Positions 22,343 through 51,908 of a stretch of 64,000 nucleotides of DNA are shown here, piece by piece. The notes beneath the pieces were generated by a model. That model searched no databases. It saw only the letters and a list, made by a program, of their open reading frames with translations, and had not been told where the DNA came from. Numbering within the stretch: position 1 is the first letter of the stretch; each line of letters begins with the position of its first letter. The position numbers and the translations under genes were made by a program. Source of the DNA: a virus (Duplodnaviria; Heunggongvirae; Uroviricota; Caudoviricetes); the IMG/VR virus record IMGVR_UViG_3300043406_000147; one strand, 5' to 3'.

Positions 22343-22371
22343 TTTTTTTTCCTGTAAAGAGAGTTTTCATC

Positions 22372-23778: not shown

Positions 23779-23887
23779 AGCCGAGGGCTTGTCGATCACA
23801 TACTGTGACAATTGTCGTCACCCCACTATTGATCATGGTGGGGTTTCACCCGAATTTTCATTTCACTTTCCACGTGGAGCTACAAAC

Positions 23888-25255: not shown

Positions 25256-25351
25256 GCAGCTCAACTAGGCGAACAACGTCTTTCGCCTAACCGCGTAATG
25301 GAGGGGTTCGCCCCTCCATTATGTCTGCCTCATCTTCACTGGGAAGAAAAT

Positions 25352-26698: not shown

Positions 26699-26796
26699 AG
26701 CGCTGAGCATGTGAGTGCAGAGAGGGGAGTCATCCCCTCTCTTATGCCGTTTAAATCGTTTGATCAGATAAATACCGCTTCTTTCGGAGAATACAC

Positions 26797-28350: not shown

Positions 28351-28367
28351 TCAACACCAACGAAACA

Positions 28368-29933: not shown

Positions 29934-30018
29934 GGAACATACATCGGGGCGCAAGCCCCGATGTATGCCGTAAGCATGGTTTGAGTATTGTTTAACGCAC
30001 CCATTCAGGAGAACACAC

Positions 30019-31533: not shown

Positions 31534-31545
31534 AAGGGGTGAGTC

Positions 31546-32169
31546 ATGGAACAACCTGTTCGCAAATATGAGCTTCCCGCCGCGCTGGCTAAGACTGAGA
31601 AGATTCTGTTCAAGCGGCTCTACCAAGTCACAATGCGGTACGTGGATTCACGGTCGATCGATGAGCTTCGCGTGTTCGGTATCCCTAGCCTAGGCGACGC
31701 CAAGGTCGATACCTACATCGAGAATGACGATTTCCACACGTATAAGAAAATCCCTGAGCTGATGGAATTGTACCAGTCTGGGATTAACTTCACGTTTGTA
31801 AATCCAAAAAACACAAAGGAAATTTACGAAATCATCGTCGAATACATCCAAGGATGGAAAGACTACATGAGTGGGAGCATGAACGCTGCGCACCCAGATG
31901 TGGAGTTCTTAACCAATCTGGACCGGTTTGCAGGTAAAGTGTTCCCTCATGCAGCTGCGTTCATTCCGAAACACGTCGTTGTGGATGATTTCTTTTCGAA
32001 GTTCGATGTGAACCTGACTGCACAAACTTTGATTGATATCACAACGCAAAAGAAAGATGCGGGTGAGATGACTGAAGAGGCTGAGGAGCAGAAGAGAATT
32101 GCAAATCTGCGCAAGCATGCTTCCAGCGAAGACTATTTTGTTTCTAATACCCGTGTACTGAAGTGGTGA
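31546..32169 (+). CDS. hypothetical protein
   Basis: A 207-aa ORF with a GGGGTGAG RBS. Confidence 0.5.
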   Translation: MEQPVRKYELPAALAKTEKILFKRLYQVTMRYVDSRSIDELRVFGIPSLGDAKVDTYIENDDFHTYKKIPELMELYQSGINFTFVNPKNTKEIYEIIVEYIQGWKDYMSGSMNAAHPDVEFLTNLDRFAGKVFPHAAAFIPKHVVVDDFFSKFDVNLTAQTLIDITTQKKDAGEMTEEAEEQKRIANLRKHASSEDYFVSNTRVLKW

Positions 32170-32174
32170 GCTAA

Positions 32175-33524
32175 ATGGAAATCGAAGACACCCCACTGTA
32201 CTACGAGTTGATGGAGACCTTCATCAAATGCGACAAGCAAAGTCAGTCGTACTACAAGGTCATGATTCATCTGGATGATCAAGGCGCACTCTACGAACCA
32301 ATGGTGGTAAAGAGTATCACAAACCGACGCGACTATGTTGGTGCGTTTTGTGATGAGGTCGTCTGCACTGTGGTGATGCCGCTTGGGAAGTATGCTCTCA
32401 AAGTGTACCCCAATCGGAATCACCTTGAAATCACCATCGAGAAGTATTTCCTGAAAGAAAACTCGACGACGATCGATTACGACAAGCCTTTGTTGTCAAG
32501 ACGCTACACTGCTTTTTTGATTGAGGATTTGCCGGCAATCAAAGAGGTGCAAGGACAAGAAGCGAAAGACGAGCACGCCCTCGACCATGTCAGTTTGGAA
32601 GAAGTTCGATTCCAGCTGTTCAACAAAGTGGAGGAGCGCATACGGGTTGCAGCTGTTGGCGGCATTTACCGAAAGATGCGTGTTGATCAACTCCTTCTTG
32701 GATTAATCACTGAAGTCACGAAGAAAATCAAGGCTGACACACGAATCATGCTCAAAGGAGTTGACATGGTTCCTGTTAACAATGTAAAGCCACTCGAACA
32801 GATTGTCTTGACCCACGGGTTACATCTGAGTGATTTGAGTGGTTTCTTACAGAAAAAATACGGGGTATATTCCGCTGGGCTTGGGAGCTACGTCCAGAAT
32901 CAGAACTGGTTCATCTATCCGTTATTTGATACGGCTCGGTACAAGAAAGCCATACGAACTGCAAACATCTACATCTTACCCAAGAAGAAATTCCCAGAGG
33001 TGGAGAGAACTTACCGCGTAGTAGGTCCCGTCGTTTCGATCATGTCCACTTCGAATACCGAATTCAAAGGGGATAACGATCTAAGCTACGCTCAGGACGG
33101 TAACGGGGTTCGGTTTGCAGAAGCTTCTAACTTCATGGAAAAGTTCCAGAAGACAGCTGGGAATAAAACTGGGATCAAACGAAAAGACAACAATAACGAA
33201 TTCTCAGCACAAACGGTGGGGAGCAACGTAGATTACGCGCCTGTTCCTCAAGAGAGAATCACCAGTAATCCATTCCAGCACTACAGCGACCTAGCAAAAC
33301 GAAAAGGTGGCGTGGTCTCTCTGAATTGGGAGAACTCAAGTCCAGACTTGATTGAGCCCGGAATGCCAGTTAGATTCATCTATTTTGACGATGATAAAAT
33401 CAAGGAAGCATATGGCATCATGGTGGGAGCGTCCCACAGCGTCGCAAAGGTAGGCGACATGATGATGCAAAAACACACGACAAACTCAATGCTGTTGGTT
33501 TTCACAAATCTGAAGCAGAAATGA
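32175..33524 (+). CDS. hypothetical protein (449 aa)
   Basis: Compact spacing after the previous gene; RBS GGTGAG. Confidence 0.5.
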   Translation: MEIEDTPLYYELMETFIKCDKQSQSYYKVMIHLDDQGALYEPMVVKSITNRRDYVGAFCDEVVCTVVMPLGKYALKVYPNRNHLEITIEKYFLKENSTTIDYDKPLLSRRYTAFLIEDLPAIKEVQGQEAKDEHALDHVSLEEVRFQLFNKVEERIRVAAVGGIYRKMRVDQLLLGLITEVTKKIKADTRIMLKGVDMVPVNNVKPLEQIVLTHGLHLSDLSGFLQKKYGVYSAGLGSYVQNQNWFIYPLFDTARYKKAIRTANIYILPKKKFPEVERTYRVVGPVVSIMSTSNTEFKGDNDLSYAQDGNGVRFAEASNFMEKFQKTAGNKTGIKRKDNNNEFSAQTVGSNVDYAPVPQERITSNPFQHYSDLAKRKGGVVSLNWENSSPDLIEPGMPVRFIYFDDDKIKEAYGIMVGASHSVAKVGDMMMQKHTTNSMLLVFTNLKQK

Positions 33525-33529
33525 CGGTA

Positions 33530-33566
33530 CGGCATAAATGGGAGGCCGGGCCTCCCATTTATGTTG
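33530..33566. terminator. bidirectional terminator, member of the conserved palindromic repeat family
   Basis: CGGCATAAATGGGAGGCCGGGCCTCCCATTTATGTTG lies between a + gene end and a - gene end. Confidence 0.6.
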
Positions 33567-33583
33567 TTTACCTCGAAACAAGT

Positions 33584-33964
33584 TTACACAGTAATGTGTT
33601 CAATGGGACCGGATGGTTGTTGAGCGATCTGGGGGCGATGCTCGAAGTAGGCCAGGGCTTTGAGCAAATGTTCCAGCGCGCGGCCTTCATCTTCGCTCGG
33701 AACGAGTTCGTTGATGTACGTGGTGCGATGAATCAGCATGCGCAACACAGCCGGCGTCGTGAGTCCATTGGGACCCACCTTTTCGATGTCGCCATCCTGG
33801 AATCGCAGGTGTTGATACGTCGAGCCATGCGTGATCCGGTAGTGATGGCCGTAGACATCCCGATCACCTTCATCCACGAATTCCATCTGCACTCGAAGGG
33901 AGTGTTCATCCTGGTACAGAAGAACAGGGCTGATGGGTTTGGTATCGGGTATTGCGGGGGACAT
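33584..33964 (-). CDS. hypothetical protein (weak MazG/HisE-like NTP-pyrophosphohydrolase resemblance)
   Basis: 126 aa with a GGAGA RBS. The C-terminal half shows only weak resemblance to HisE/MazG (GSTY...KVG...EDEGRALEHLL). Confidence 0.35.
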   Translation of the reverse strand: MSPAIPDTKPISPVLLYQDEHSLRVQMEFVDEGDRDVYGHHYRITHGSTYQHLRFQDGDIEKVGPNGLTTPAVLRMLIHRTTYINELVPSEDEGRALEHLLKALAYFEHRPQIAQQPSGPIEHITV

Positions 33965-34075
33965 GTTTAATCTCCGAAGAGGTTGGGGTTTAACGAATAC
34001 TTACCCACATCCGAGAGCATCGAGTGTAGGCGATACTTGCTTTCCAAAGGGTTCTTCGATGTGGGCGCACTTCGC

Positions 34076-34825
34076 TCAAACGATCTGTCCATCTGTGTCG
34101 TCGCCATCAGTCGACAAGTATCCAAAAAAATGCTGGTGGGAGAGCGGGTTCACGTTCTCGTTCGTGAAGATCTGATCCAAGCCGTTGATCACTTGCGCTT
34201 GAACGGCCACCCAGTCTTGAGAGGCGTCGATCACGATGATGCGTGGACCCATCCCTGGCTCTTGCATCACTTCTTGAAAATGGGCTCGCCATAAGGAATA
34301 TACATCGACACCGTTTTCAGTGTGGATTTTATCCAAGCCATTTTGGCGACGAGTGTCCAACCGGGACAATGCTACTTGACGATCAACGTCGAAGAAGAAG
34401 GTGTAGTCCGGACGCACAGCCGTGATGCGCATGCCAGGCGCTGCCTGGAATGCTTCGATGGTCGGGAACATGCCTTTCATGCGTCCTTGAAAGACATGGG
34501 TACTGTCGATGTACCGATCGCAAATAACCGACTTACCTGCCGTGAGGGCGGGTAGGATTGTTGACACTAAGTGCTGCTTCCGAGCAGCGAGGAAAAGCGC
34601 GACTTGGGTAGCATCGTCGATCTTTTCAATCTTGGGATCTTCATTGACCACAATCTGCCGAATCTGCTCGGCGACAACACTGCCTCCTGGCTCCCGTGTC
34701 GAGATATAGTCCTTTTTCAGTTGCCAGAAGTAATGATTGATTGTCCCAATTGCGGCTGTTTTGCCAGCGCCGTCTCCACCTTCAACGGTGATGAACAGAG
34801 GCGGCTTCAAGTAGTCTTCGTTCAT
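34076..34825 (-). CDS. tmk: thymidylate (dTMP) kinase
   Basis: P-loop ITVEGGDGAGKT, the REPGG motif and DRY..S..VFQG, as in Tmk. GGAGAG RBS. Confidence 0.65.
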   Translation of the reverse strand: MNEDYLKPPLFITVEGGDGAGKTAAIGTINHYFWQLKKDYISTREPGGSVVAEQIRQIVVNEDPKIEKIDDATQVALFLAARKQHLVSTILPALTAGKSVICDRYIDSTHVFQGRMKGMFPTIEAFQAAPGMRITAVRPDYTFFFDVDRQVALSRLDTRRQNGLDKIHTENGVDVYSLWRAHFQEVMQEPGMGPRIIVIDASQDWVAVQAQVINGLDQIFTNENVNPLSHQHFFGYLSTDGDDTDGQIV

Positions 34826-34852
34826 GGATCTCTCCGGCTCTTTTGGAAGGGA

Positions 34853-35854
34853 TTAAAATTCAGTGTCCACATCGGCCAGTAGTTGCAGAACCACCGGCTT
34901 GTTGTTGAATGTGTAATACTTCTCGCCTTTGATGACGTAGTCGTACACGAACTCATCAGGCTCACAAAGATAGTCACGCGGTACAGGGTGTCCGATTGAC
35001 AGGAGTGCCATCGTCATGATTTTCTTCATCATGACGGTGTCATTTTTCGGCAGTAGTGTCTTCACCCCAGGCGCTTGGAGTGTTTGCATAAAGGAGCGGA
35101 ATGGCAGAAGGCGTTTGTTATCCTTGCCTATCATCCAGGAAATTCGACGCACCGCAGGCAGTACGCATTCAGCTTGGTAGCGATTTGCTGCTTTTTGTTC
35201 ATCCGTGTAGCTCACCGAATGTACTTTGGCATCAAGTGCTTGTTTGAAACTGCTGATCACTTCCTTGACCGGAATGGTCTTTGTCATGCACAAGAAGCAG
35301 CACACATATCGCATTGTCTCTTCATCGACATGGACACATGAAGGCGGGAGGCTAAAAGAGAATATCATTGCCGACGCAGTGAGTATTCTCTTTTTATGGA
35401 CAACCACACCGGTATCCTTGGGTGGGGTGGCGTGGATTCGCCCACATGCCTCGATCAGCTCCGCTTTCGAATACTCGCGCAGCTGACCATGCACACCTTC
35501 ATTCTGAAAAGGTGTGAGCCAAACGTGCATCGTTTTTTCACATTCAAGTAAAGCCGAATGAAAGCTTCGAATCTTCTCATCCTCGGTCAAGCGGATTTCG
35601 ACCCATGTGAATGCCGGGGCAAGAAAAGCATGCGTATCTGCCGTGATTTGTTGCATGCTTTTCTTTTCTTCCTGCGCTTTTTGGACGGACCCTCCTAAGA
35701 GAAAGAGGTAGCTGCCAAACCACGTTAAAACGGAAGAGCCAAGTAGCAGTGGCGTGCTGGCATTTGTGGTGACGGTATCGACCACAATGAAAGCGATGCC
35801 GGCAAAGATGGTTGCCAGCTTCATTGCCCGGAAAACTTCGACGTTATTTTTCAT
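34853..35854 (-). CDS. membrane-anchored hypothetical protein
   Basis: Two N-terminal hydrophobic helices. 333 aa. First gene of a three-gene minus-strand block. Confidence 0.5.
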   Translation of the reverse strand: MKNNVEVFRAMKLATIFAGIAFIVVDTVTTNASTPLLLGSSVLTWFGSYLFLLGGSVQKAQEEKKSMQQITADTHAFLAPAFTWVEIRLTEDEKIRSFHSALLECEKTMHVWLTPFQNEGVHGQLREYSKAELIEACGRIHATPPKDTGVVVHKKRILTASAMIFSFSLPPSCVHVDEETMRYVCCFLCMTKTIPVKEVISSFKQALDAKVHSVSYTDEQKAANRYQAECVLPAVRRISWMIGKDNKRLLPFRSFMQTLQAPGVKTLLPKNDTVMMKKIMTMALLSIGHPVPRDYLCEPDEFVYDYVIKGEKYYTFNNKPVVLQLLADVDTEF

Positions 35855-35986
35855 GGGGAACTTTCTTCTTTCAGATTGAAAAAGGTAATTGCGTAAAAAC
35901 TCGATTCCACTAAATTATAGTCACGTACTATAAAAATGAGCAAACACCGCTCTAACCATCATTCCTTCTTCGGAGAACTTTCAACA
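35855..35986. promoter_or_regulatory. AT-rich divergent promoter region (contains TTCCAC-N15-TACTAT)
   Basis: The intergenic stretch between divergent genes contains TACTAT at 35926-35931, 15 nt after a -35-like TTCCAC. Confidence 0.35.
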
Positions 35987-36997
35987 ATGCAAACCACCAC
36001 CTTCGCCGCTCTGCAAACCGCCGTCAACGCCGCCTCGACCGCTGCTGGCATCGATGCCGTACTCCACGATGTTGGCACCAGCATCGCCAGCAACGGCCGC
36101 TACATCCGCGCCATCGGGAAAACGGCGGCTCGCTACAGCGGCCCGCAAACCCTCCGGGCACGCCGCAAGGTCATGGCCGCACGCAGCGCGCGCACCTGGC
36201 ACTTCAACCAAGCATCGTCCAAGATCAGCCTGATCAAGGGTGAAGTGCCCCTGCTCAGGACCCTCGAACGCATCGGGGAAGAGCTGCAGGATGCCGACAT
36301 CACCAAGCATCGTTCGCTCAAGCGCCTGGCCATAAATCTGCTCAAGCAGATCATCGATGGCAATCTCCCCGCTGCGCTCGGCGCTGAAGCACGAAAAGAA
36401 GACCGGATGATCCGGTTGCTCGATACCATGAAAGGTGGAGACGGCGCATCCGCCCTGGATTACGTTCTGGCACTCTGCCAGAACATCTGGGCTGAAGAAG
36501 TGGCGGCCGAAAAGAACGAGATGCGCCGGTACTTCATGCCAACGATGATCGAGGAAAACGAGCGCCTGGTTCGCGTTCGCGCGGGCGAGTACATCGCCAA
36601 CCAGAGCAAGATCACCCTCTTCGTCATCGTCAAGGATGATCACGATGGCGAGCCCGTCAAGGTGCAATTCACCTACGACGCGGCGGCGCAATCCGAAGAG
36701 CAGACCAAGGCACTGCTGGAGTTCGCCACAACCTACGGCCTGAAGTTCTACAGCGTCGAAGCACGGCACGCGAAGATGGTCCGGCAGACCCGGCAAATGG
36801 GCCTGATCACGGAACGGTTCGAAAGCACCGACGGCGGCGTCCTCGGTGATGACGAAGGCGTCGTTCCGAAGATCCGCAAGACCGTCTCGGCGAACGAGTG
36901 GATGAACAACGCGCATCCGCGCGATGCTCGCTACTGGTATATCAATGGCACCTACGCCCTCGAAGGCGTGGAGGAAATCGGCGTGCAGTACACCTGA
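35987..36997 (+). CDS. GC-rich hypothetical protein
   Basis: ATG at 35987 (MQTTTFAALQ). Higher GC than its neighbours. The antisense ORF 35981-36916 is its mirror. Confidence 0.45.
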   Translation: MQTTTFAALQTAVNAASTAAGIDAVLHDVGTSIASNGRYIRAIGKTAARYSGPQTLRARRKVMAARSARTWHFNQASSKISLIKGEVPLLRTLERIGEELQDADITKHRSLKRLAINLLKQIIDGNLPAALGAEARKEDRMIRLLDTMKGGDGASALDYVLALCQNIWAEEVAAEKNEMRRYFMPTMIEENERLVRVRAGEYIANQSKITLFVIVKDDHDGEPVKVQFTYDAAAQSEEQTKALLEFATTYGLKFYSVEARHAKMVRQTRQMGLITERFESTDGGVLGDDEGVVPKIRKTVSANEWMNNAHPRDARYWYINGTYALEGVEEIGVQYT

Positions 36998-37149
36998 GCG
37001 AAACTGCGCTCGGCTCTGAGTAAGTAGAGTGTGTCTGGGGTGAAAGCCCCAGACACACTGCTATGCTGTTTCTTTTTTGCTAAGAAAATGGTATGCCCGC
37101 ATGGTTTTTTATATCATGCTTTTTTTGTTCTGTTCAGGAAGGATTCATT

Positions 37150-39489
37150 GTGGCTGATCCGATTTATGTAGATGTCAGTAAAGTCGAAACTAAAATGACG
37201 ATGGTGGCTGATGACAAAGTGTTATTCAACCGAGCAGGTGCTGGTCCATTTCAGGCAGCGCTGAGTGTGTTAGCACTGGCAATCATTCCAGCCATTCAAT
37301 CAGGGTTCGATGCCAGGTATGCTGCGAAAGGAACCGCGACAACATCACCAGGAGTTCTTACTGTTGGCGGAGTTTCCACGACGGGTAGCGTTGTCAAAAC
37401 GAACTCAGTGACAGTTGTCGAGAACGTGGTGAACACGTCCACTGCACTCGGTACAAGCAACCCCGTCACAGCCGCGTTGACAGGCACGCGCACATTCAAC
37501 GCAACCAACCTGACTGAGTTTGATCTGATCCCGTTTGCAACGTTGCAGCCGGGAGATGTGGTCAACATCTTTCACAACGCTATACCGTACAACCGGATTA
37601 TTCGTATATCGGATTCGGGCACGGCAGCAAACCCCATCATCATCAACGGGGTGACCAACGCCAATGGGGATCGACCGGTTATCAGTGGTGCCAATGCACG
37701 TGTGACACCGGGTTCCATGCCAGGAGGCACTGCAAACATCTTCAACAGCACCTCAACAGCATCTTGGGCATACCGAGAAGGAACGTCGCTTGTAGGTACC
37801 GCCTGTCGCGTCACAGACCCATGGAACGCGTACCGGCCGAAGCACATCCAGTTCAAGAACTTAGAAATCGTCGGTGCTGTCAAAGGCAACTACTTCTACG
37901 ACAACTTCGGCACAGTGCATGCTTGGGATCAAGCCAGCGGTTTCCGTGTGCAAGAAGGCGAAGGCATCATTGGAGATAACCTGGTCATCCACAACAATGA
38001 TTTTGGTTATTTCACGCAAGCCTACAACGGGCTGCCCAACTACGCGCCTCTGAATTGCGTGCTCCGCAATTCTCGCGTTTACGATTGTGGAATGGTCGGT
38101 CGCTCGTCTGAGCATGGCGCTTACATTCAAGGCATCAAGCCCATTTTGGAAAACAACTGGTTTGGTCCGAACAAGATCGGCAGCTTAGGCTCCACGATCA
38201 AATTGCGCGCAGCAGGGTTCATCATTCGTCACAACTGGATGATGTCTTCTGATGGTCGTCTGTTGGACATCGTTCAAACAGAAGATAGCAATGACGGTGT
38301 CCGTGTGGACGCATCGTACGGCTACGGTCACGTGTACGGGAACGTGATCACAAATCTCTGGTCCGCCACCGTCGTCGGTGCTTCATTCCCCATTCACATC
38401 GGTGGGGATAACGCAGGTGAAGATAAAACGGCAACTGAATGGATCGGGGGTGTTCAAGTACCGACCAACACCCTCACTGATGCTGACTTGACTGGTCCGT
38501 CTACAGGGATCGTTGCAAAGTACATCCACACGGTGTACTTCTACGACAACACGGTGGTATTCAAGAGCGATTCCTCTCAAAAGTGGAGGTGTGCAATATT
38601 TGATCTCTCCCTCTCAGGGACCGCTACCAATCCACGCACAAAGGTGTGGGAGTGGAACAACGCATTCCGCATGATCGGCACCACTCGTTGGTCGCGTGTG
38701 CGCAACGCAGGCCATGTCGCACACATGGGCGGATCTGTCTGGGATGTGGATGGTGATTTGTTCGACGCGCACGAAGAAGCCAAGGCAGATCGTTACTCAT
38801 TCTCAGGAACACCGAAAGATGGTGTTTTGGGACTGGTGACTGACACATGGCTGCCCACAGCTCAAACGTTGACTCATGCACGCCTGAGCACGCCTCCAGC
38901 GGGCTTGCCTGCGACGTTTGATTCCACGCTCGTGGCGAATCGACAAATTGGTACTGCCACAAACTCACTGGCAACGCGCAACCCCGTTGCAGTCGGAGCG
39001 TTGGATGTATCGAGTGCTACTTCAACCCCAGTCAGTCGGGTTGAAACCACAACAACATTGGAAAGCGCACCAGCTGTCACAGCCGACACGCTCATCAAAG
39101 ACGAGACTTCTTTCAGCCTCACCAATGGCTCTAAAAAGGCCGTAGCGAGCTTTAATGTCGACTATACCAGTGGTTGCTCATCTTTAACATTTGAAGCGCT
39201 TGTAGCCGTTTCTGATGCGAATGGAATCCAGCAAACGATTCAACAACGTGTGGATGTGGTGATCTTGGTTGCCAACTCTGTGATCACTGTCAAGAGTCAA
39301 TCTGCTCCATCGCTCAGCTCCTGTCTTGCAGGCACACTGACCCTGGCAATGGTGACAGTGGTTTACAACAAAACTGTCAACTTGTGCTTGACGCCCACGT
39401 CCTCACTCACACCAACTTCGATTGGTGGATATGTGGCACTCAGCGCAGCGCTCGGTAGCCCAGTCACTGGGCTGGCACTGCTGACCTAA
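37150..39489 (+). CDS. tail fibre/tailspike-like protein with a pectate-lyase-type beta-helix
   Basis: GTG at 37150 after an AGGAAGGA RBS. Internal repeats such as NLVIHNNDFGYF and SEHGAYIQG are typical of right-handed beta-helix depolymerase/tailspike domains. A Thr/Ser-rich C-terminus. Confidence 0.45.
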   Translation: MADPIYVDVSKVETKMTMVADDKVLFNRAGAGPFQAALSVLALAIIPAIQSGFDARYAAKGTATTSPGVLTVGGVSTTGSVVKTNSVTVVENVVNTSTALGTSNPVTAALTGTRTFNATNLTEFDLIPFATLQPGDVVNIFHNAIPYNRIIRISDSGTAANPIIINGVTNANGDRPVISGANARVTPGSMPGGTANIFNSTSTASWAYREGTSLVGTACRVTDPWNAYRPKHIQFKNLEIVGAVKGNYFYDNFGTVHAWDQASGFRVQEGEGIIGDNLVIHNNDFGYFTQAYNGLPNYAPLNCVLRNSRVYDCGMVGRSSEHGAYIQGIKPILENNWFGPNKIGSLGSTIKLRAAGFIIRHNWMMSSDGRLLDIVQTEDSNDGVRVDASYGYGHVYGNVITNLWSATVVGASFPIHIGGDNAGEDKTATEWIGGVQVPTNTLTDADLTGPSTGIVAKYIHTVYFYDNTVVFKSDSSQKWRCAIFDLSLSGTATNPRTKVWEWNNAFRMIGTTRWSRVRNAGHVAHMGGSVWDVDGDLFDAHEEAKADRYSFSGTPKDGVLGLVTDTWLPTAQTLTHARLSTPPAGLPATFDSTLVANRQIGTATNSLATRNPVAVGALDVSSATSTPVSRVETTTTLESAPAVTADTLIKDETSFSLTNGSKKAVASFNVDYTSGCSSLTFEALVAVSDANGIQQTIQQRVDVVILVANSVITVKSQSAPSLSSCLAGTLTLAMVTVVYNKTVNLCLTPTSSLTPTSIGGYVALSAALGSPVTGLALLT

Positions 39490-39493
39490 CCGT

Positions 39494-39540
39494 CAGCCTA
39501 ATTGGAACAGGACAAACTACTCCCGCAAGGTACTGTAGTC
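39494..39540 (+). terminator. long hairpin terminator after the tail-fibre gene
   Basis: GGAACAGGAC...GTCCTGTTCC has a 10-bp perfect outer stem. It is followed by TATGCTG. Confidence 0.5.
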
Positions 39541-39828
39541 GTCCTGTTCCACCCTCTACCTATGCTGCCTGATCTTACGGCATAAAGGCACCCCTTTTAG
39601 GGTGCTTTCTTACGATAATTTTGATGTATCATAGTTATTAGAAAAATAATAACTTTTTATCGTGTATTCATATAGGATGACTACAGTACAGTAGGGTAAG
39701 GAAGAAGTGTTGACTACGTCAAAGAAATAGAAGTCGCTCCGCTACGCTCCGACTCCAAAGAAAGAAAAAGAAAGAAGTGATATTACTAAAGTAATATAGA
39801 CATAAGGATCGGGGGGTGAAACCCCCCT

Positions 39829-39847
39829 CTTACTTACTTACTTACTT
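39829..39847. repeat. (TTAC)n microsatellite in an AT-rich non-coding island
   Basis: CTTACTTACTTACTTACTT follows directly after the GGGGGGTGAAACCCCCC hairpin (39811-39827). Confidence 0.7.
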
Positions 39848-40163
39848 CATATGATTATAGTAAAAATAAAATAAATATAACAGTAGAGTAGAGATCTTTC
39901 TTTTTTGCTTCTTTTTTCTTTGAAAAGAAGCAACTACAGATCTATCGAAACCTACAACTTGAGAGGAAAGAATCCTCTCAATGTACATACGAAGATCTAC
40001 TACGGTAGATGAAAGAATAAGAATTCTTTCAAAAGTAGATACAACAAAACCTACCACCTCATAGAACCGAGCTATAAGCTCGGAATAAATGAATCAAACG
40101 TACTCTTAGGGCGCGGTGGCGAAATTGGCAAATATGATTAGAGGTGAGAATAATACTTGATAG

Positions 40164-40194
40164 ACGCCATTTGAGGCGTTTTTTATGCCGCATG
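40164..40194 (+). terminator. rho-independent terminator with a TTTATGCCGCAT tail
   Basis: ACGCCATTTGAGGCGT followed by a T6 run and ATGCCGCAT. Confidence 0.55.
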
Positions 40195-40252
40195 TACGAA
40201 TGGGTCAAGTAATCGATTGAGGCGCTCATTTGAGCGTTTAAAGGGATTTAAA

Positions 40253-40771
40253 GTGGATACTACGACAAAAGACACCACGGGTGATGGATTCAATGACACA
40301 GGGACGATCAGGTTCGATGTGATGATTCCGCCTCATGACCCAAGGATAGACACACCGCTGTATATCCGAACGCGCAAGCTGCTGATCACACGGGACAAGA
40401 TGTGCTTTGTGTGCCAGAGAACTGCGAGACAATCAGGTGCTCCTTTGGAAGCACATCACCATCCCATCATGCGTTCAATGATGAACATGGTAGATTGGCC
40501 GAGGTTTATTCGCCTAGCTAGGTTGGGTCACTGGGGACCTAACGTGCAGGCTTTCAACTGGGACAAGTTCAGTTTAGATGACGTTGTTAAGTTTGTGGAT
40601 GATATGCGCTACAACGGAATGCTGCTTTGCGCGACGCACCACAGGGCAATGAATGCTGGGATACACGCATTACCGTACCCTCTCTTTTTAGCACAAGCGT
40701 ACGGCTTGGAAGGCTATCAATTTAGCAAAACACAAACACTGGTACATGCAGATGACGATCCTGTAATTTGA
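40253..40771 (+). CDS. HNH endonuclease
   Basis: CFVCQ...EAHHHP and a later CATHHRAMNAGIH form a CxxC...HH...N...H HNH signature. The GTG start at 40253 is chosen by RBS AAAGGGA; the TTG 40217 and ATG 40322 alternatives are possible. Confidence 0.5.
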   Translation: MDTTTKDTTGDGFNDTGTIRFDVMIPPHDPRIDTPLYIRTRKLLITRDKMCFVCQRTARQSGAPLEAHHHPIMRSMMNMVDWPRFIRLARLGHWGPNVQAFNWDKFSLDDVVKFVDDMRYNGMLLCATHHRAMNAGIHALPYPLFLAQAYGLEGYQFSKTQTLVHADDDPVI

Positions 40772-40778
40772 TTTGGTG

Positions 40779-40828
40779 TCATAGACCCTCCTGAGCTGCC
40801 GACTAAGCAAGCTCAGGAGGGTCTATGA
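40779..40828. repeat. perfect 18-bp-stem hairpin
   Basis: TCATAGACCCTCCTGAGC-(14 nt loop)-GCTCAGGAGGGTCTATGA lies directly after the HNH gene. Confidence 0.7.
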
Positions 40829-40894
40829 TTGCATTGAATTATGGACATAGATTATTGATTGGAACACCCGTTCAAACCACTTAGGAGTTATCGC

Positions 40895-41560
40895 ATGTCT
40901 TCCGATTTTCTTGATACCAGTGTTGTTCGTTCGATTAACCTGGATGCTGTTCGTGCTGGTGAACAACCTGATGTTTCGGTCAATTTCAAAAATGCAGCCT
41001 TTATGCAAGGCTCAATGGGTGCGCTGTCCATCAAATTCGAAAAGGGCTGGATGATCCTGGAGGATGAATCGTTCTACGAGGGGGTGCATGACGGTACCAG
41101 AATCAGAGTCAAGCCGCCCGTAGCGCAAGTTGTTCGGCCAATCAACTTTGTTGTTGAAGAGCGAGACTTCACTGAAGCCGGTGGTGATTTGTGGTCGGTT
41201 GTGGTACAGATCGACCCGTATCGGCAGCCAGTGGCTTTTTCTCGCATAGGTCAGCGTTACGAGCGATTCTTGCTCAACTCAGAAGTCGTTGCGTTCGATT
41301 CGAACGTCTGCGATTTAATCATGGACAAGAAGGTAGTTGAGACCAGTTTGCCCGACTCTCGAATTCGGCTCCTTGAGAAGCCGCAAGATGGCAAGAAGCC
41401 GTTGATTCTGAAACCTTTCATCAAGTTTTACGCCAGCCTCGATGTGCTCCCGCAGCTTGGGCGTTGCCTGGAAAAATGCAGGAAAATGAATGGAGATGAA
41501 CCGCCCCTGGCATCGGCCAGCATCGAAGTAGAAACTCTGAAATACCAACTGGTTTCGTGA
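40895..41560 (+). CDS. triplicated family A member 1 (FEKGWM(I/V)LE(D/N)E motif)
   Basis: TAGGAG RBS and the motif SIKFEKGWMILEDESFYEG. Confidence 0.55.
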   Translation: MSSDFLDTSVVRSINLDAVRAGEQPDVSVNFKNAAFMQGSMGALSIKFEKGWMILEDESFYEGVHDGTRIRVKPPVAQVVRPINFVVEERDFTEAGGDLWSVVVQIDPYRQPVAFSRIGQRYERFLLNSEVVAFDSNVCDLIMDKKVVETSLPDSRIRLLEKPQDGKKPLILKPFIKFYASLDVLPQLGRCLEKCRKMNGDEPPLASASIEVETLKYQLVS

Positions 41561-41613
41561 ACGAAGGGGTGATGCGTCACCCCACAGCATCCCACATTAC
41601 TTAGGAGAACGAA

Positions 41614-42258
41614 ATGCCAGTGTGGCAGCATCTCGGTGTCAACTACCCAAGCGTTCAGGCGGCGGAAGAAACACCCATGAACGAAGAAGCGAACCGCTTT
41701 CCGGATACCGTATATCTGACGCATGATCCGAAAAGACCCCTTTGCGTCAAGTTTGAAAAGGGCTGGATGGTTCTGGAAGACGAACGTCGCTACCCCAACA
41801 ATCTTGGCGAAGATAAAAAACCACCGATCATTAGTGCGATTCATCCGGTTGAACTTAGAATTCTTGACCAGGATTCGGAAGACCGGGAGCGTGGTGAAAT
41901 TGTGTTCGAGGTGCTTTTCAGAGAGTACGTGGGGATACGAGCTTGTCGGGTGGATGAAAGTTATTTGGATGCAGGCTCTATTCCAGCCCCTCGCAGAATC
42001 GTCGATAGCCCAATAGTGCTTGCTGATTTTATCCGGCACTGTTGGCGAGAAACCATTCTGCCCGCCATGGGCGTGAAGATTTTACACTACACCGACCCTG
42101 GCGAACGAGAAACCAGAAAGAATTCTTCGCGTGAACCGCGTTTGATTCTGGTCGTGAAGCAGCGTTACGCTAGTCAGATTGCTTGTGCAATTCGCAAGCA
42201 CAGCACCGTAAATATTTTTAGCGAATGGGAGCACGCTGAGCACTTTTATAAGAAGTGA
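41614..42258 (+). CDS. triplicated family A member 2
   Basis: Motif CVKFEKGWMVLEDERRY...VFEVLFREYVGIRACRVDESY. TAGGAG RBS. Confidence 0.55.
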   Translation: MPVWQHLGVNYPSVQAAEETPMNEEANRFPDTVYLTHDPKRPLCVKFEKGWMVLEDERRYPNNLGEDKKPPIISAIHPVELRILDQDSEDRERGEIVFEVLFREYVGIRACRVDESYLDAGSIPAPRRIVDSPIVLADFIRHCWRETILPAMGVKILHYTDPGERETRKNSSREPRLILVVKQRYASQIACAIRKHSTVNIFSEWEHAEHFYKK

Positions 42259-42306
42259 AACCCCTACCGGTGATTACCGCCACTTTGAAATCACAAAGGA
42301 TTCTCC

Positions 42307-42900
42307 ATGAGTCAAACCGACTACCGCGCAATTTCTTTCTTCAATGCAGTCACCCTCCCGACCGATCCTGATATTGAACTCACCATTCGATTTGAGAAGG
42401 GTTGGATGGTCCTTGAGAATGAACACGTTTATGACGTGTTGGATCGGGGGGTTGTTCGAAAAATGAAAGACCCCATTCGCTTGTTCATTCATCCGACCGA
42501 TTACTTCGTGGTCGATCAGGATGCTGATGAATATCAAAAAGGAATTGAAGTATCACAAGGGGTGGGGATCTTTGAAGTCGTTTTCAAACCGCACGTTGGG
42601 CTGACGGCTTGTCGTGCGGATGAGTCATATTTTCAATTGGGACCTATTACAACACCCGGTCACATTGTGCGGGATGTTGTTCAGTTGAAAACCATGATTC
42701 AAGAAGGCAAGCTGATGGAGGCTATCCTCCCAGAAGCACGTGTGAACGTGTTGTTCTTACCGAAGGATTCCGTGCTTGGTCCGCTTTATAGACCATCCCG
42801 CAGAGATCCGCGACTGGTGATGTACGTGAAGAATAACTACGCTGGCGTTGTCTCTAACGCAATTGACCATCATCAGAAAATCAACATCTACGAAGCGTAA
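42307..42900 (+). CDS. triplicated family A member 3
   Basis: Motif TIRFEKGWMVLENEHVY...IFEVVFKPHVGLTACRADESY. AAGGA RBS. Confidence 0.55.
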   Translation: MSQTDYRAISFFNAVTLPTDPDIELTIRFEKGWMVLENEHVYDVLDRGVVRKMKDPIRLFIHPTDYFVVDQDADEYQKGIEVSQGVGIFEVVFKPHVGLTACRADESYFQLGPITTPGHIVRDVVQLKTMIQEGKLMEAILPEARVNVLFLPKDSVLGPLYRPSRRDPRLVMYVKNNYAGVVSNAIDHHQKINIYEA

Positions 42901-42938: not shown

Positions 42939-43370
42939 ATGAACGAGAAAATCAAAACCGGATATGCGTGGGCGTCACCCGCGCTTGTGAAGTTCGTCCG
43001 CTCAAAAGCAACGAACGATTTCATGGAGCTACAAAAACTCACCGATCGCGAGTTTGGCACTATCATCCAGTACCCTGAGATTTCGGGGTACGATAAATTG
43101 GGCTCGCATTGCCACCCTGTTGCAATGAAAGGTCCGAATTTCCCACCCCATGTCGATCCGCGAATTATTGTCGGAAACCGGCCGTGGCGCGCGTTTTTCT
43201 GGGTTCTTGATACACCAGAAAGCGGGCAGGAAGTGCATCTCCAAGTGGGGAATCGTTGCATTGGTTTGTGCAAAGGAGATTACGCTGTCTTCGATGCGGA
43301 ACTGATGCACTCGGCACAATCCTCGCGGGTCTGGTACGGTATCAGCGCCCAATTTGAAATCGTGAAATAA
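42939..43370 (+). CDS. small cupin/2OG-Fe(II)-oxygenase-like protein (weak)
   Basis: The order PHVDP (HxD) ... ELMHS (His) ... RVWYGIS (Arg) fits the double-stranded beta-helix oxygenase facial triad; the call is speculative. Confidence 0.35.
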   Translation: MNEKIKTGYAWASPALVKFVRSKATNDFMELQKLTDREFGTIIQYPEISGYDKLGSHCHPVAMKGPNFPPHVDPRIIVGNRPWRAFFWVLDTPESGQEVHLQVGNRCIGLCKGDYAVFDAELMHSAQSSRVWYGISAQFEIVK

Positions 43371-43880: not shown

Positions 43881-43892
43881 TTGGAATCAAAC

Positions 43893-44681
43893 ATGTCTGA
43901 AGATAAACTGATTGAACACCCCGGTACCTTTATCAGCACGCAATACAACCCCGCCTGCCATCAAATTTTTGAGAGTACCCGAGTGAATCTCTTGGCGACT
44001 TTCATGGAGGATCGGCTCTCAGACTTACTTGGGGTGTTCAAACCCTTCCTCAGAGCTGGTTACTGTACCATCGGAAACTACGACATTGCTACGGTGCGTC
44101 TCGATCTTTTGCGCTTGCCCGATGATGCATTCGACCGTTTTTGTATGGCTTACATGCTTACTGTACTGAGCGGTAATTCGCAGCTGTTCCATACGGGGAA
44201 TAAAGGATGGGATGCTGTTTATTTGGTAAAATGCCAACTTGAGATTTTCAAGCCGACCACCTTGACCTTTCAGCATAACACTTATGAAATGCTCCGAAGG
44301 ATAGGCTGCGCTTCAAGCACTTGTGCGGACCTTAAAGGCGAATTTGAAGACCAGCAAAAGAAAGAAAAAGACGAAGAAAGTATTTGGAGACAAACGTGTA
44401 GTTTCCCAGATAACTACTTCGTAAATGTCTGCAGTAAGACTTTTAAAGAAATGGACGTTGACTACGACATTGGCGTGGAATCTATCTCCGTACCAATGTT
44501 TACTTTTGAAACATTTAGAAAAATTCATCACGCTGACAGTAATTCAGCGCAAGCCCTTTATATTGCAGTTTGCGCAGCAATTCGGAATTTAACGATTACT
44601 GATCCTCGCCTCCCGACAGACGTTCGACGTAAAAATCTAACGCGAACCGATTTCTACACTCCCGAAAAGGAACCAACATGA
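43893..44681 (+). CDS. triplicated family B member 1 (FD.FCMAY motif)
   Basis: Motif DAFDRFCMAYMLTVLSGNSQLFHTGNKGWD. ATG at 43893. Confidence 0.5.
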   Translation: MSEDKLIEHPGTFISTQYNPACHQIFESTRVNLLATFMEDRLSDLLGVFKPFLRAGYCTIGNYDIATVRLDLLRLPDDAFDRFCMAYMLTVLSGNSQLFHTGNKGWDAVYLVKCQLEIFKPTTLTFQHNTYEMLRRIGCASSTCADLKGEFEDQQKKEKDEESIWRQTCSFPDNYFVNVCSKTFKEMDVDYDIGVESISVPMFTFETFRKIHHADSNSAQALYIAVCAAIRNLTITDPRLPTDVRRKNLTRTDFYTPEKEPT

Positions 44682-45454
44682 CTGCAATCACTAGCGCAAT
44701 CGCGCACAAGTACACCTCCGGCGAGTCGCACTCCGACGACTACATGAAATTCAAGATGCTGGCAAGTAGTGTCTTCATGGATCTTGTCAAATCAGTGTTT
44801 GGTACTTTTGGTGAGTACCTGGAGATCATGGATGTGGATCTCTCATCCACCCGCGGTACCGTGAAGCTCAAGCTCATCAAATCCCCGGATGGGTTTGATG
44901 CCTTTTGTATGGCCTTTGCTCTGATGAAGGCGTCCGGCCTACCTGATGAAAATGATATCGGAGAAGAAGTATGGTGGCGGCAAGTCCACCTCCTCACTAT
45001 TCAGATGAGGCAGTACCGGGAAGCGAAGATAATCCTTTCCAACAAACTGTACTTCTTCAATGAGCGATTAGACGCCGCGCTCTCAGCGGGCAAACATGCG
45101 CTTATGCAGAAGTACATGGAACAGGCTGAACAACAGGGGCTTCGAGAAGTGGTGCGAGATAAAGTAGCTGGCCGCCTCGGCTTATTTTACAGCATCTTTC
45201 AAGACCATCTGGATCTGACGGCTACAAAGCTGGCAATGTCGGGCTGGGATCGGGGTAGTCATCGTGTCCCAATGATCGCCTTTTACCAGTTCAACGAGAT
45301 CACGATGCAAATGAAGGATCAACCAGCAAGCCACGAAGACTTGTACATCGCGTATTGCGAGTGCTTGGTCCGCCTGACAGGCATCGACCCTTCGCAACCA
45401 ATCGATATTCGTCAGATGAATCTGAAGAGTATTAGCCGTTACCACGCTGCCTAA
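44678..45454 (+). CDS. triplicated family B member 2
   Basis: Motif DGFDAFCMAFALMKASGLPDENDIGEEVWW. AAAGGA RBS; the start overlaps the upstream stop. Confidence 0.5.
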   Translation: MTAITSAIAHKYTSGESHSDDYMKFKMLASSVFMDLVKSVFGTFGEYLEIMDVDLSSTRGTVKLKLIKSPDGFDAFCMAFALMKASGLPDENDIGEEVWWRQVHLLTIQMRQYREAKIILSNKLYFFNERLDAALSAGKHALMQKYMEQAEQQGLREVVRDKVAGRLGLFYSIFQDHLDLTATKLAMSGWDRGSHRVPMIAFYQFNEITMQMKDQPASHEDLYIAYCECLVRLTGIDPSQPIDIRQMNLKSISRYHAA

Positions 45455-46050: not shown

Positions 46051-46875
46051 ATGGAAGTCTACTTCAAAAACGGAATACCCCTCCCGGCAGCGTACGCTCC
46101 TGTCCTTGAGGATAGTTTGTTCATGCAGGCTGTCTCCCGTAACACAGACCTAAACGACCAGACCTTCTCCGGACTGGTGTACGAAACAACCCAGCGTGTG
46201 CTTACCTCCGCGCTGGCGCCGTTCATTGATAAGTTTTTGAAAATCAACAAAGTCGAGGTGCAAGGCACTTCCACTGCTTTGGATATAGAAGTAGTCAGCA
46301 TGCCTTCGAAGGAGTTCGATATCTTCTACATGGCGTACTGTCTGGCAAAGATCTCCAACCTGAATCCGATGGTGAACTCCTCGCGTTCTGGTTGGGACAT
46401 GGTGCTCGATTTGACCGTGCAGCTGAAGCGAAATCAGGGTGTTGTTTTGTATTTCGCAATACCTTCGTTTGTTCTAATGGAGAGATTATTCATTCTGAGT
46501 GCCGACCGCGATGTGGGTGGATTGTGTTCGGCATACGTTGACAGTGTGGATCGTCTGTCTGCGGTCGCAGACAGCATAAGGGAAATAACACCCGCACTGG
46601 GTCAAGAGTATGTTTCTTTGTTCGAACGTGTTTTCAAAGACACGGGTGGATATGTGGATGCTCGCGGCAAGTGTGCTCCCCAGATTAACCAAGTTGAATT
46701 CGCTCATCTCGTTGAATCCTACTGGCTACCCACCCGTCACGATCAAAGCGAGCTTCGTAAGCTCCACACGCTCTACGCTTCCTACATCACTGGAAAAGCA
46801 GGCCGATCTCCGGCGTTCCACGCTGATGTTCATTCGCTCAACTTGTTCACCCCCCACACCTACCGGTTCAATTAA
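46051..46875 (+). CDS. triplicated family B member 3
   Basis: Motif SKEFDIFYMAYCLAKISNLNPMVNSSRSGWD. AAGGAG RBS. Confidence 0.5.
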   Translation: MEVYFKNGIPLPAAYAPVLEDSLFMQAVSRNTDLNDQTFSGLVYETTQRVLTSALAPFIDKFLKINKVEVQGTSTALDIEVVSMPSKEFDIFYMAYCLAKISNLNPMVNSSRSGWDMVLDLTVQLKRNQGVVLYFAIPSFVLMERLFILSADRDVGGLCSAYVDSVDRLSAVADSIREITPALGQEYVSLFERVFKDTGGYVDARGKCAPQINQVEFAHLVESYWLPTRHDQSELRKLHTLYASYITGKAGRSPAFHADVHSLNLFTPHTYRFN

Positions 46876-49184: not shown

Positions 49185-49775
49185 ATGAAAAACGATCGTC
49201 TGATCAGCGTTGCTGCTTCTGCTGTGGTTAAATTTGTCAAGGGTGGCGGTCTGGTATATTCTTCCCTCCCGGATTTCCCGATCATTCGGAAGGCCAAGGT
49301 CCGTGGATTACAGCGAGCCGTTTTCCGCTTGGCGGAAGCTCGCTGTATCCGTTCCTGCAGAATGGAGCTGGCAGCGCTTTCCCGCAAGAACGAGGAGAGT
49401 ATGCCGAAAGTATTTGCGGAACAAACCACCGAAACAGCAGCCAAAGAAGCCGGCCGTCTGATTCTCGGGATGATCCAAGAAAACAAGGAGTGGGAGGTTC
49501 TTAGCTACTATGGGCAAGAGCTTTTCTTGAAGGAGATCTCGAAGAAGACTGGAATCACTGTTGACGACCCGTACTTCTACAGCACAAGCAAAACGACATC
49601 CAGTTGCTATGTGGATGTCGGATTCCCGCACAATGTAGCGGTTACGCTACCGAATGCTAAACAGGGCATTGCCGGTGAAGTGATCGGGAAGCTTGAACTT
49701 CTGGAAAGGAGCGCACAATTTGACGCTGATCACGATTACCCCGATTGCAGCGAAGGTGATTGGGATGTCGTCTGA
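49185..49775 (+). CDS. hypothetical protein
   Basis: ATG at 49185 after an AAGGA. 196 aa. Confidence 0.45.
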   Translation: MKNDRLISVAASAVVKFVKGGGLVYSSLPDFPIIRKAKVRGLQRAVFRLAEARCIRSCRMELAALSRKNEESMPKVFAEQTTETAAKEAGRLILGMIQENKEWEVLSYYGQELFLKEISKKTGITVDDPYFYSTSKTTSSCYVDVGFPHNVAVTLPNAKQGIAGEVIGKLELLERSAQFDADHDYPDCSEGDWDVV

Positions 49776-49852
49776 TGCGGCATAAAAGATCGCCTTCGGG
49801 CGATCTAAGAAAAGGCTTGTCCTTTTCTTTTTTCTTTCTTGAGAGGTACGTT

Positions 49853-50197
49853 ATGCCAGTTATTACGATTGAACCCGATGGGTGGTCTTGCTCAGAAGTT
49901 TTTGGAGTGACGCCATTTCCGAGGGTGCTGAATAAATACAAACTACAACCAGGAGAGACTGGTATTTACTGCGGCCGAGGCTCACCATGGGGTAATCCTT
50001 ACTCAATGCGACAGGGTGAAGATCCTACAAAAGAACGTGATCGGGTGTGCGACTTGTTTGATCAATATGTGGTAAATCGACCCGATTTAATTGAGCGGGC
50101 AAAAGTTGAACTCAGGGGTAATGACCTCATTTGCTTCTGCGCACCGAAACGGTGTCACTGTGACACCTGGCTAAGACTGGCAAATCTCGAAGAGTAA
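49853..50197 (+). CDS. DUF4326-like small protein (GRGSPWGNPY motif with a C-terminal Cys/His cluster)
   Basis: ATG at 49853 after a GAGAGG. Contains GRGSPWGNPY and FCAPKRCHCD. Confidence 0.4.
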   Translation: MPVITIEPDGWSCSEVFGVTPFPRVLNKYKLQPGETGIYCGRGSPWGNPYSMRQGEDPTKERDRVCDLFDQYVVNRPDLIERAKVELRGNDLICFCAPKRCHCDTWLRLANLEE

Positions 50198-50270: not shown

Positions 50271-51908
50271 ATGCAAGCTCCCGCAGACACCATCATCACC
50301 TCCGCCCCCACCACCGTCAAGTGGACCAGTCTCGGCGATTATCCCATCTTCCTGGAACGCGTGAAGGCGCGGTTCCTGAAGAACACCGACAACGGCAAGC
50401 GGCCGGTCTTCGCCACCACCACCACCGGCTTGTGGGAGATGTACCTCGACGGGATCGCTGACCCCGTGGAGCGCCAACACAAGAACTGCCGCACCTGCAA
50501 GAAGTTCATCGAAGCCTACGGCACCCTCGCCGTGGTCGATGAGGACGGCATCCTGCGCTCGCTGATGTGGGATGAAGAAGACGCACCCGAATCGCTGCGC
50601 CTGTCCATCGCCAACATGGCCAAGACGGTCCGCCGGGCCGAAATCAAGACGGCGTACTTCTCGCCGCTGGCAACCTGGGGGACGGCGGTCACCGGAGACT
50701 GGTCGCATCTTTCGGTCGACGTGCCCCCGATGATGCGCTTTCGCCACCCGGTGATGGAAGCACACCAGCTCTCGGCCGAAAAGATCCAGGAGTTCAACTC
50801 GGTCAAGCTCGCCCTCAGCGAGTACACCGTGGACCACCTGACCACGGCGGTTCAGCTGCTGAACGCCGAAGCGCTCTACCGCACCGAAAAGGTGTTGGGT
50901 CCGGCGCAGTGGCTGCTCGAACGAAAGCAAGAGCAAGCCAGCACGGCGGGGACTCAGCGGCAAGACAACCTGCTCTGGAAAGCGATCGCCACCGCGCCGT
51001 CCGGCTTCTGCCACCCGCGCTCCAGCATGATCGCCACGCTGCTGGATGACATCGCCGCCGGAAAAGACTTCGAAGCAGTCAAGCGCTCCTTCGACGTCAA
51101 GATGAACCCGACGGTCTACATGCGTCCGCAAACGGGCCCGTCGGCCGGTGAAATCGCGGCTGCCGAAAAGCTGTTCGAGCAGCTCTCGTCTGGCGATTCC
51201 CTGCGCCGCCGTTTCGCACGACTGGATGAAGTCAAGGCCATCTGGAAGCCGGCACCGAAGAAGGAAGAAAAAGCAACGGGTGACGGCCTGTTCTCGCATC
51301 TGAAGCTCAAGACGGACGCATCGTCCAGCGAAAAGATCGCCCTGCAACTCCCGCCGAAGCTGATGACGTGGGAGAAGTTTGCTTCCACGGTGCTCCCCAC
51401 TGCGGAACGCATTCAACTGCACACACCGATCTACGGCGCATACGCGCCCCTGGTCACCGCCGCGAACATGGATGCGCCTCCGATCATCCAGTGGGACACC
51501 GAAGAAAACCGCAACCCGGTCTCCTGGTATTTCCGCTCCAACGGTTGTTCTGCTCGCACGTTTGGGCTGGCCTCTGATGTGTTCGTGGAAGTGGAAGCTG
51601 TCACGATGCAACCGTCCATGTGGAATGGCGGCTTCGAGCACCAGGGTGCCGGCGTGATGTTCATCCTGCAGGGTGCGCATGAAACTCAAGAAGCGGGCGC
51701 TGCGCTGTTCCCCGAAATCCTGAAAACGGAGTATCGGGGTATTCGTTCTGTGCTGGAGGCATACTCCAACCATGCGAAAATTGAAGGCATCAACGAACCC
51801 CATGCTGCCGGCGTCATGCTCAGCAAGAACCGCGCAGGCTGGGACCAGATTCTGAAGGTCTGGTCGGATGGCAAGGCCAGCACGTACAAGCTGGATCGCT
51901 GGGAATAA
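50271..51908 (+). CDS. GC-rich hypothetical protein (545 aa; moron-like)
   Basis: AGAGG RBS and a strongly elevated GC3. Long mirror ORFs lie on the opposite strand. Confidence 0.5.
   Translation: MQAPADTIITSAPTTVKWTSLGDYPIFLERVKARFLKNTDNGKRPVFATTTTGLWEMYLDGIADPVERQHKNCRTCKKFIEAYGTLAVVDEDGILRSLMWDEEDAPESLRLSIANMAKTVRRAEIKTAYFSPLATWGTAVTGDWSHLSVDVPPMMRFRHPVMEAHQLSAEKIQEFNSVKLALSEYTVDHLTTAVQLLNAEALYRTEKVLGPAQWLLERKQEQASTAGTQRQDNLLWKAIATAPSGFCHPRSSMIATLLDDIAAGKDFEAVKRSFDVKMNPTVYMRPQTGPSAGEIAAAEKLFEQLSSGDSLRRRFARLDEVKAIWKPAPKKEEKATGDGLFSHLKLKTDASSSEKIALQLPPKLMTWEKFASTVLPTAERIQLHTPIYGAYAPLVTAANMDAPPIIQWDTEENRNPVSWYFRSNGCSARTFGLASDVFVEVEAVTMQPSMWNGGFEHQGAGVMFILQGAHETQEAGAALFPEILKTEYRGIRSVLEAYSNHAKIEGINEPHAAGVMLSKNRAGWDQILKVWSDGKASTYKLDRWE

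Follow-up and report, generated by a model that had tools for sequence, protein, structure and literature searches.

An ancient tandem triplication of an orphan small-protein family in an uncultivated phage

What is the role of three adjacent phage genes whose products resemble each other and, in every collection that we searched, no other family? The question is raised by g1, g2, and g3, which lie one behind the other at 40895-42900 of the IMG/VR virus record IMGVR_UViG_3300043406_000147 (Caudoviricetes); the whole stretch of 64,000 nucleotides that was analyzed is referred to here as the window. A preliminary description, made from the sequence alone, had reported three consecutive genes at this place, each with a strong ribosome binding site (RBS). 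Both observations were confirmed, as all three genes are on the plus strand and a Shine-Dalgarno sequence (AGGAG or AAGGA) is found 6-7 nt 5' of each ATG. The sizes of 214 and 197 amino acids given for g2 and g3 were also right, but the 233 residues given for g1 derive from an in-frame open reading frame (ORF) with a TTG start at 40859. The ATG at 40895 stands behind the RBS and yields a protein of 221 residues, which is likewise the size in the public gene call. The genes and the motif that they share are located as follows.

40895-41560, plus strand: g1, 221 amino acids, ATG start, RBS AGGAG at 40883-40887
41614-42258, plus strand: g2, 214 amino acids, RBS AGGAG at 41603-41607
42307-42900, plus strand: g3, 197 amino acids, RBS AAGGA at 42296-42300
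41036-41068, plus strand: motif in g1, FEKGWMILEDE, residues 48-58
41752-41784, plus strand: motif in g2, FEKGWMVLEDE, residues 47-57
42391-42423, plus strand: motif in g3, FEKGWMVLENE, residues 29-39

The three proteins were significantly similar in every pairing. By BLASTP, g2 and g3 aligned over their full length (E value of 8e-35, 37% identity over 188 residues), while g1 aligned with g3 at 1e-12 (27% identity over 134 residues) and with g2 at 1e-8 (28% identity over 82 residues). The sequence FEKGWM(V/I)LE(D/N)E..Y is invariant in g1, g2, and g3, as had been described. Two further blocks previously ascribed to all three proteins, FEV.F..VG..ACR.DESY and a C-terminal block, were found only in g2 and g3, with 'FEV(V/L)F(K/R)' missing from g1. 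The g1 protein is the most diverged paralog, aligning with g2 and g3 to about residue 165 before an unrelated tail, such that its last ~55 residues have no counterpart in the others. The g3 protein lacks an N-terminal extension of ~26 residues that is present in g1 and g2. No internal repeats were detected within the proteins, and a family HMM searched against all ORFs of the window returned the trio only.

The duplication is old, as the preliminary description had proposed. Nucleotide identity between the paralogs is only 41-46%, and the proportion of synonymous differences (pS) is saturated at 0.74-0.84, compared to a proportion of nonsynonymous differences (pN) of 0.45-0.55. For the 16 motif-region codons, pS does not fall below 0.7, compared to a pN of 0.16, and codons of the motif differ synonymously among the paralogs (TTC/TTT, GAA/GAG, GGC/GGT, and CTG/CTT). 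Since these codons differ synonymously while pN is low, the motif is kept by selection at the protein level and not by gene conversion or as a DNA repeat. The family is real, and the data support its triplication in tandem long ago.

Strain variants of the region were obtained from three public datasets (JGI, Logan, and ENA; the source samples are JGI 3300048671, SRR35184734, and ERZ15186004). The JGI contig L004 carries the same gene order (798-residue gene, HNH gene, g1, g2, and g3) in nearly identical form, and at ~100% identity across the trio it provides no selection signal; the Logan contig L001 is 99.94% identical. In the ENA contig L006, g1 is more diverged, with 21 of its 221 residues changed. 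The synonymous and nonsynonymous divergences of g1 from this ortholog (dS and dN) are 0.22 and 0.043, a dN/dS of 0.20, and residues 45-62 have two synonymous changes with none of the 18 residues replaced. The neighboring HNH gene compared with the same contig has a dN/dS of 0.04. Thus, g1 is under purifying selection about five times looser than that on the HNH gene.

These comparisons bear on whether the trio might be decaying or spurious ORFs, that is, functionless duplicates or a repeat at the DNA level that merely reads as protein. Homologs were found nowhere in the searches made, and the C-terminal blocks have been lost from g1, both of which would be in keeping with decay. Nonetheless, all three genes have an RBS, their reading frames are intact in every strain where they were seen, and pN between the paralogs is far below the saturated pS. 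Equally contrary to decay are the dN/dS of g1 and the unchanged motif in a strain at a dS of 0.22, and the synonymous differences in the motif codons speak against a DNA repeat or gene conversion. Decaying or spurious ORFs are thereby effectively refuted, and g1, g2, and g3 are shown to be real, selected, protein-coding paralogs.

We then consider their relatives. An exhaustive HMMER search with a three-sequence profile against 1.84 billion cluster representatives recovered g1, g2, a partial g3, and nothing else, and a profile search of 5.8 billion protein clusters (E ≤ 10) recovered the trio only. A single-sequence search with g3 and scans with degenerate patterns over viral, metagenome, and GTDB contigs returned only the trio or its strain variants. 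None of the three proteins matched Pfam, NCBIfam, or the PADLOC defence-system models at E ≤ 0.1, nor was there a match in PHROGs. A tblastn search of 50,697 phage genomes (E ≤ 10) returned nothing, and the trio region had no match in Rfam. Libraries and cluster databases together gave no family beyond the trio and its strain variants. In these searches, the family is confined to one species-level lineage of uncultivated phiKZ-like jumbo phage.

A match of the family profile to the second fibronectin-III (FN3) domain of the human growth hormone receptor (PDB 3hhr and others; E value of 0.002) was rejected. The match, 'KGWMVLEYELQY...DPI', was found by sequence search of the PDB and spans 49 residues at 21 bits, with the score resting mostly on one exact seven-residue word, KGWMVLE. 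By estimate, chance exact 7-mer matches to some part of a query of 200 residues are expected in a database of this size. There was no FN3 match in Pfam and no WSxWS-type motif in the alignment of the trio, and neither a cytokine-receptor protein nor an FN3 protein came up otherwise in the exhaustive search of 1.84 billion cluster representatives. Because the score comes from a single word, the source is a vertebrate receptor, and no other FN3 match was seen, we treated the similarity as coincidence.

The window itself is, judging from its genes, part of a distant phiKZ-like (chimallivirus-type) jumbo phage. Its 992-residue virion protein has best matches of 33-38% identity in Burkholderia phage FLC9, Ralstonia phage RP12, and giant phages of Xanthomonas and Pseudomonas, and 290 records of the phiKZ-like group match this protein. 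Five paralogous internal head proteins are encoded at 20363-26698 and 28347-29933. The trio is placed after the structural block, preceded in order by a gene for a 798-residue protein, ~700 bp of AT-rich non-coding DNA, and the HNH gene.

The trio proteins are ~22-25 kDa and mildly acidic (pI 5.3-6.3), with no hydrophobic stretch of 19 residues, and are predicted to be soluble and without a transmembrane segment. AlphaFold, run with the only available alignment, produced poor models, with a predicted local distance difference test score (pLDDT) of 41.6 for g3 and, for g2, a pLDDT of 42.5 and a predicted template modeling score (pTM) of 0.44. In these low-confidence models, the N-terminal half of g2 and g3 is rich in beta strands and the C-terminal part is alpha/beta with a helix at its end. 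The motif of g2 is modeled, again at low confidence, as a beta-hairpin with strands at residues 43-48 and 51-56 and a turn between them. The mark of the PH-like superfold was taken to be a seven-stranded antiparallel beta-sandwich with one end closed by a C-terminal alpha-helix. The PH and bPH profiles of Pfam did not match g1-g3, and NCBIfam likewise gave no match (E ≤ 0.1). Compared to PH-like domains (PHb/bPH), the trio would hold an insertion of ~40 residues inside the domain, and model confidence is too low for a fold call. The invariant Trp of the trio lies in strand 2 of the model, unlike in classical PH domains, where the invariant Trp is found in the C-terminal helix.

Could the trio instead be enzymes with a diverged active site, such as a nuclease or a phospholipase D (PLD)-like phosphodiesterase? 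Conserved acidic residues are present (E, E, D/N, and E of the motif, a DQD/EER run, and DESY in g2 and g3), and g3 has a weak PDB match (E value of 0.028) to Escherichia coli PssA, an enzyme of the PLD superfamily. That candidate was rejected, as the match is to g3 alone with none for g1 or g2. No conserved catalytic pattern was found in the alignment of the trio. In particular, the HxK(x)4D (HKD) motif of phospholipase D, usually duplicated, is not conserved in the alignment, and no PD-(D/E)xK nuclease pattern of the form D ... (D/E)xK is invariant in all three proteins. We consider an enzymatic function very unlikely.

We tentatively favor the explanation that the trio are non-enzymatic binding proteins in an accessory role, with a shared constrained hairpin and diverged surfaces, because the family is an orphan under comparatively loose purifying selection in an accessory setting and shows neither an enzyme signature nor a membrane segment. 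This is a possible reading to which we attach well short of even confidence. Such binding or adaptor proteins would have a beta-rich core, which may be a PH-like sandwich that the C-terminal helix closes off, and the invariant FEKGWM(V/I)LE(D/N)E would be the first beta-hairpin of that core. The hairpin could serve either as the core of the fold or as the contact to one shared partner, and the diverged remainder of each paralog could allow each copy to bind a different target. The three genes would probably be transcribed as one unit by a phage RNA polymerase from an element 5' of g1, described below. The most likely role would be an accessory one at the phage-host interface, in host takeover or counter-defence, and not in metabolism or as an essential part of the virion. 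The anti-defence, host-takeover, and decoy roles raised in the preliminary description all fit the orphan status, the divergence of the paralogs, the looser constraint, and the lack of catalytic motifs. For a decoy role there was no specific support; with a pI of 5.3-6.3, the proteins are not strongly acidic DNA mimics.

A bolder version may be entertained, in which the trio would be a new fold-level adaptor family restricted to a novel branch of jumbo phages that form a nucleus. All copies would dock through the hairpin on one conserved partner, such as a host hub protein or the phage machinery for protein import or the shell, and the diverged remainders would select different cargo or targets, such as host defence proteins. 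We regard this version as improbable.

Several results weigh against the trio being accessory binding proteins. With a pLDDT of only 41.6 and 42.5 in the two models, the resemblance to a PH-like fold may have arisen artefactually from a generic beta-sandwich guess, and Foldseek found nothing among viral models. Three others coincide with evidence for virion proteins, namely a TATG element of the type found at virion genes (an arrangement in keeping with late expression and not so typical of host-takeover genes), an aligned A-x-E in g1 and g2 that is the prohead protease cleavage motif of related phages, and the frequency with which tandem paralog families of phiKZ-like phages are virion proteins. 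The transcription signals and the HNH gene that bear on these points are located as follows.

40217-40771, plus strand: HNH endonuclease gene (phrog_8048, 1.1e-16), directly upstream of g1
40784-40823, plus strand: GC-rich hairpin with a 14-bp stem and a 12-nt loop, between the HNH gene and g1
40824-40827, plus strand: TATG, candidate promoter of a phage non-virion RNA polymerase, 71 nt 5' of the g1 ATG
41566-41583, plus strand: small hairpin GGGGTGA-TGCG-TCACCCC in the g1-g2 spacer, read from the sequence, without a T-run 3' of the hairpin

At 29 places in the window a GC-rich hairpin runs directly into TATG, compared to ~3 in shuffled sequences. The commonest form of this cassette, a hairpin followed by (A)TT and TATGC(C/T)G, stands 5' of the virion genes at 26797, 30019, and 37093. 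Examples of cassettes are found at 1527-1557, 7783-7811, 26719-26749, 29942-29970, 37028-37068, 40784-40827, and 62418-62447, and many cassettes form complete palindromes (CATA...TATG), identical on either strand. The hairpin at 40784-40823 is flanked by CATA (40780-40783) and TATG, so that the palindrome extends, and it is probably a terminator or an RNA-end element. A separate short hairpin with TATGCCG at 40184 precedes the HNH gene. In phiKZ, the non-virion RNA polymerase has 5'-TATG-3' as its late promoter, starting at the G, and TATG is required for promoter function but does not suffice (PMC4666361). The cassettes look like a combined terminator and phiKZ-type late promoter, in a phage ~35% identical to phiKZ relatives. 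A scan for sigma-70 promoters gave no more hits than in shuffled sequences, and an AT-rich early-promoter motif of the 'TACAAC' type was not enriched.

The match to a phiKZ-type late unit before g1 is at the level of sequence only. Because the cassette stands directly before g1, it suggests that the phage polymerase may read the trio as a single transcription unit, perhaps at a late stage. The bases following this TATG are ATT and not the commoner C(C/T)G, and cassettes are also found beside non-structural genes (51962 and 53922), so the timing of the trio is something that we infer. As a separate observation, the 12-nt loop at 40798-40809 is exactly reverse-complemented at 684-695 of L006 (GCCGACTAAGCA versus TGCTTAGTCGGC) with the stems unchanged, which looks like an inversion across the stem arms.

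The main rival to binding proteins is that the trio are virion-associated, as minor head-packaged or ejected proteins or other minor structural proteins made late, with the prohead protease trimming g1 and g2 behind an A-x-E near the N-terminus. In phiKZ, the prohead cleavage motif is S/A/G-X-E. The prohead protease of the related phage SPN3US cleaves after A-X-E, yielding N-terminal propeptides (PMC10052503). The g1 and g2 proteins have A21-G-E23 and A15-A-E17, respectively, at aligned positions, and several virion proteins of the window carry one N-terminal A-x-E. The motif is also enriched three- to four-fold in the internal head proteins of the window, at 1.7-2.4 per 100 residues versus a mean of 0.6, and the cassette before g1 resembles those 5' of virion genes. 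Opposed to this, g3 has no N-terminal A-x-E, the trio proteins are not A-x-E-rich, and by estimate an A-x-E falls within the first 25 residues of ~13% of proteins by chance (0.53 per 100 residues expected).

Similarity searches and location also argue against a virion protein. Pairwise alignments below significance and a mapping of the family to a known virion component had been named beforehand as findings that would refute the preliminary description, and neither was obtained: the alignments are significant, and PHROGs, tblastn, and profile comparison with a virion paralog array of phage FLC9 were all negative, with no similarity to any PHROG virion family or member of that array. All-versus-all BLASTP revealed no link between the trio and the internal head proteins. 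Furthermore, the trio lies outside the structural block, behind the 700-bp non-coding stretch and the HNH gene, and the cassettes that stand beside non-structural genes detract from the promoter as a sign of virion genes. Overall, we judge a virion-associated role unlikely, though less so than an enzymatic one.

The accessory setting on which the binding-protein explanation partly relies, and which had been proposed at the outset, was borne out, as the neighbors that were searched are equally orphan, a second orphan family lies downstream, and a mosaic segment begins in the 3' end of g3. The HNH endonuclease upstream was likewise confirmed. The ~700 bp of AT-rich non-coding DNA at 39490-40216, which had no Rfam match, carries TATG on both strands along with several small hairpins and the simple repeats CTTACTTACTTACTTACTT and GAAAGAAAAAGAAAGAAG. 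Downstream of g3 are tightly packed orphan genes encoding proteins of 143 and 165 residues and the second family of three. The 143-residue protein (42939-43370) had been labeled 2-oxoglutarate (2OG)-oxygenase-like, a label without statistical support, with no match in Pfam, PHROGs, NCBIfam, or the PDB; apart from a 92%-identical strain variant, the protein has no relative. Its HVD ... H ... R spacing could fit a 2OG-oxygenase fold. The second family comprises proteins of 266, 258, and 274 residues (43881-44681, 44678-45454, and 46051-46875) with BLASTP E values between members of 5e-14, 3e-6, and 5e-5, and hhalign found no relation between it and the trio.

The mosaic segment runs from ~42786, within the 3' end of g3, to 45459 and has just 86% identity to its counterpart in two contigs of one JGI sample (L003, 1-2571, and L004, 11890-11948), while the flanks are 99.9-100% identical. 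It spans the 3' end of g3, the genes for the 143- and 165-residue proteins, and two of the paralogs of the second family. The 266-residue protein in the segment is only 62% identical, with a dS of 1.9, and the four genes of the segment have dN/dS values of 0.06-0.18. The segment is a recombination mosaic in the accessory region. In phage FLC9, the position that matches this accessory region (21753-40218) is occupied by ~15 consecutive mutual paralogs of virion or baseplate type (phrog_1037 and phrog_3545), all annotated as hypothetical only. This array was rejected as a relative of the trio, since hmmsearch and hhalign showed no relation.

Further along the window, the 195-residue protein encoded at 53287-53874 ends in a PEP-CTERM motif (Pfam PF07589, 9.5e-8). 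PEP-CTERM is a sorting signal of bacterial exosortase systems and is unusual in a phage; here it may be a clue to the host. For the 545-residue protein at 50271-51908 (phrog_1735), the best homologs come from Rhizobium phages, Bacillus phage SP-15, Brevibacillus phage Sundance, and many Salmonella phages, and some of these phages carry hypermodified thymidine. Nearby lie genes for a DUF4326 protein, a thymidylate-synthase-like product whose match covers no more than positions 1-179 of a 266-position profile, and a thymidylate kinase (loci 49760-50197, 56537-57226, and 34076-34825). These genes may form a DNA base-modification module.

Lineage-only gene families are common in giant phages, and the trio is not more surprising than many of the other orphan genes around it. 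It is a clean example of a functional orphan family, with no relative among ~15 billion proteins and yet clear purifying selection, and it comes from giant phages whose branch shares only 30-40% identity with those in culture. If a function is found, the trio would represent a new protein family marked by the striking constraint on its 11-residue hairpin, and paralog sets of this kind are a productive place for finding new phage-host interaction proteins.

Among known systems, the tandem paralog families of phiKZ-like phages, such as the internal head proteins of the window and the virion array of FLC9 (gp311-gp326), belong to the same kind of genome and are, like the trio, old and strongly diverged duplicates on one strand with short spacers. 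Unlike them, the trio is not A-x-E-rich, lies in a non-structural accessory block, and has no PHROG family, and it shows no sequence or profile similarity to those families. Described anti-defence and host-takeover proteins differ from the trio in that there is no homology and the promoter-like element is of the late- rather than the early-gene type. The trio resembles the small orphan accessory proteins of lytic phages in being small, soluble, duplicated and diverged, under looser constraint, and in a mosaic accessory region. It is new as a sequence family, and as a lineage-only tandem family of small proteins in the accessory region of a giant phage, it is ordinary.

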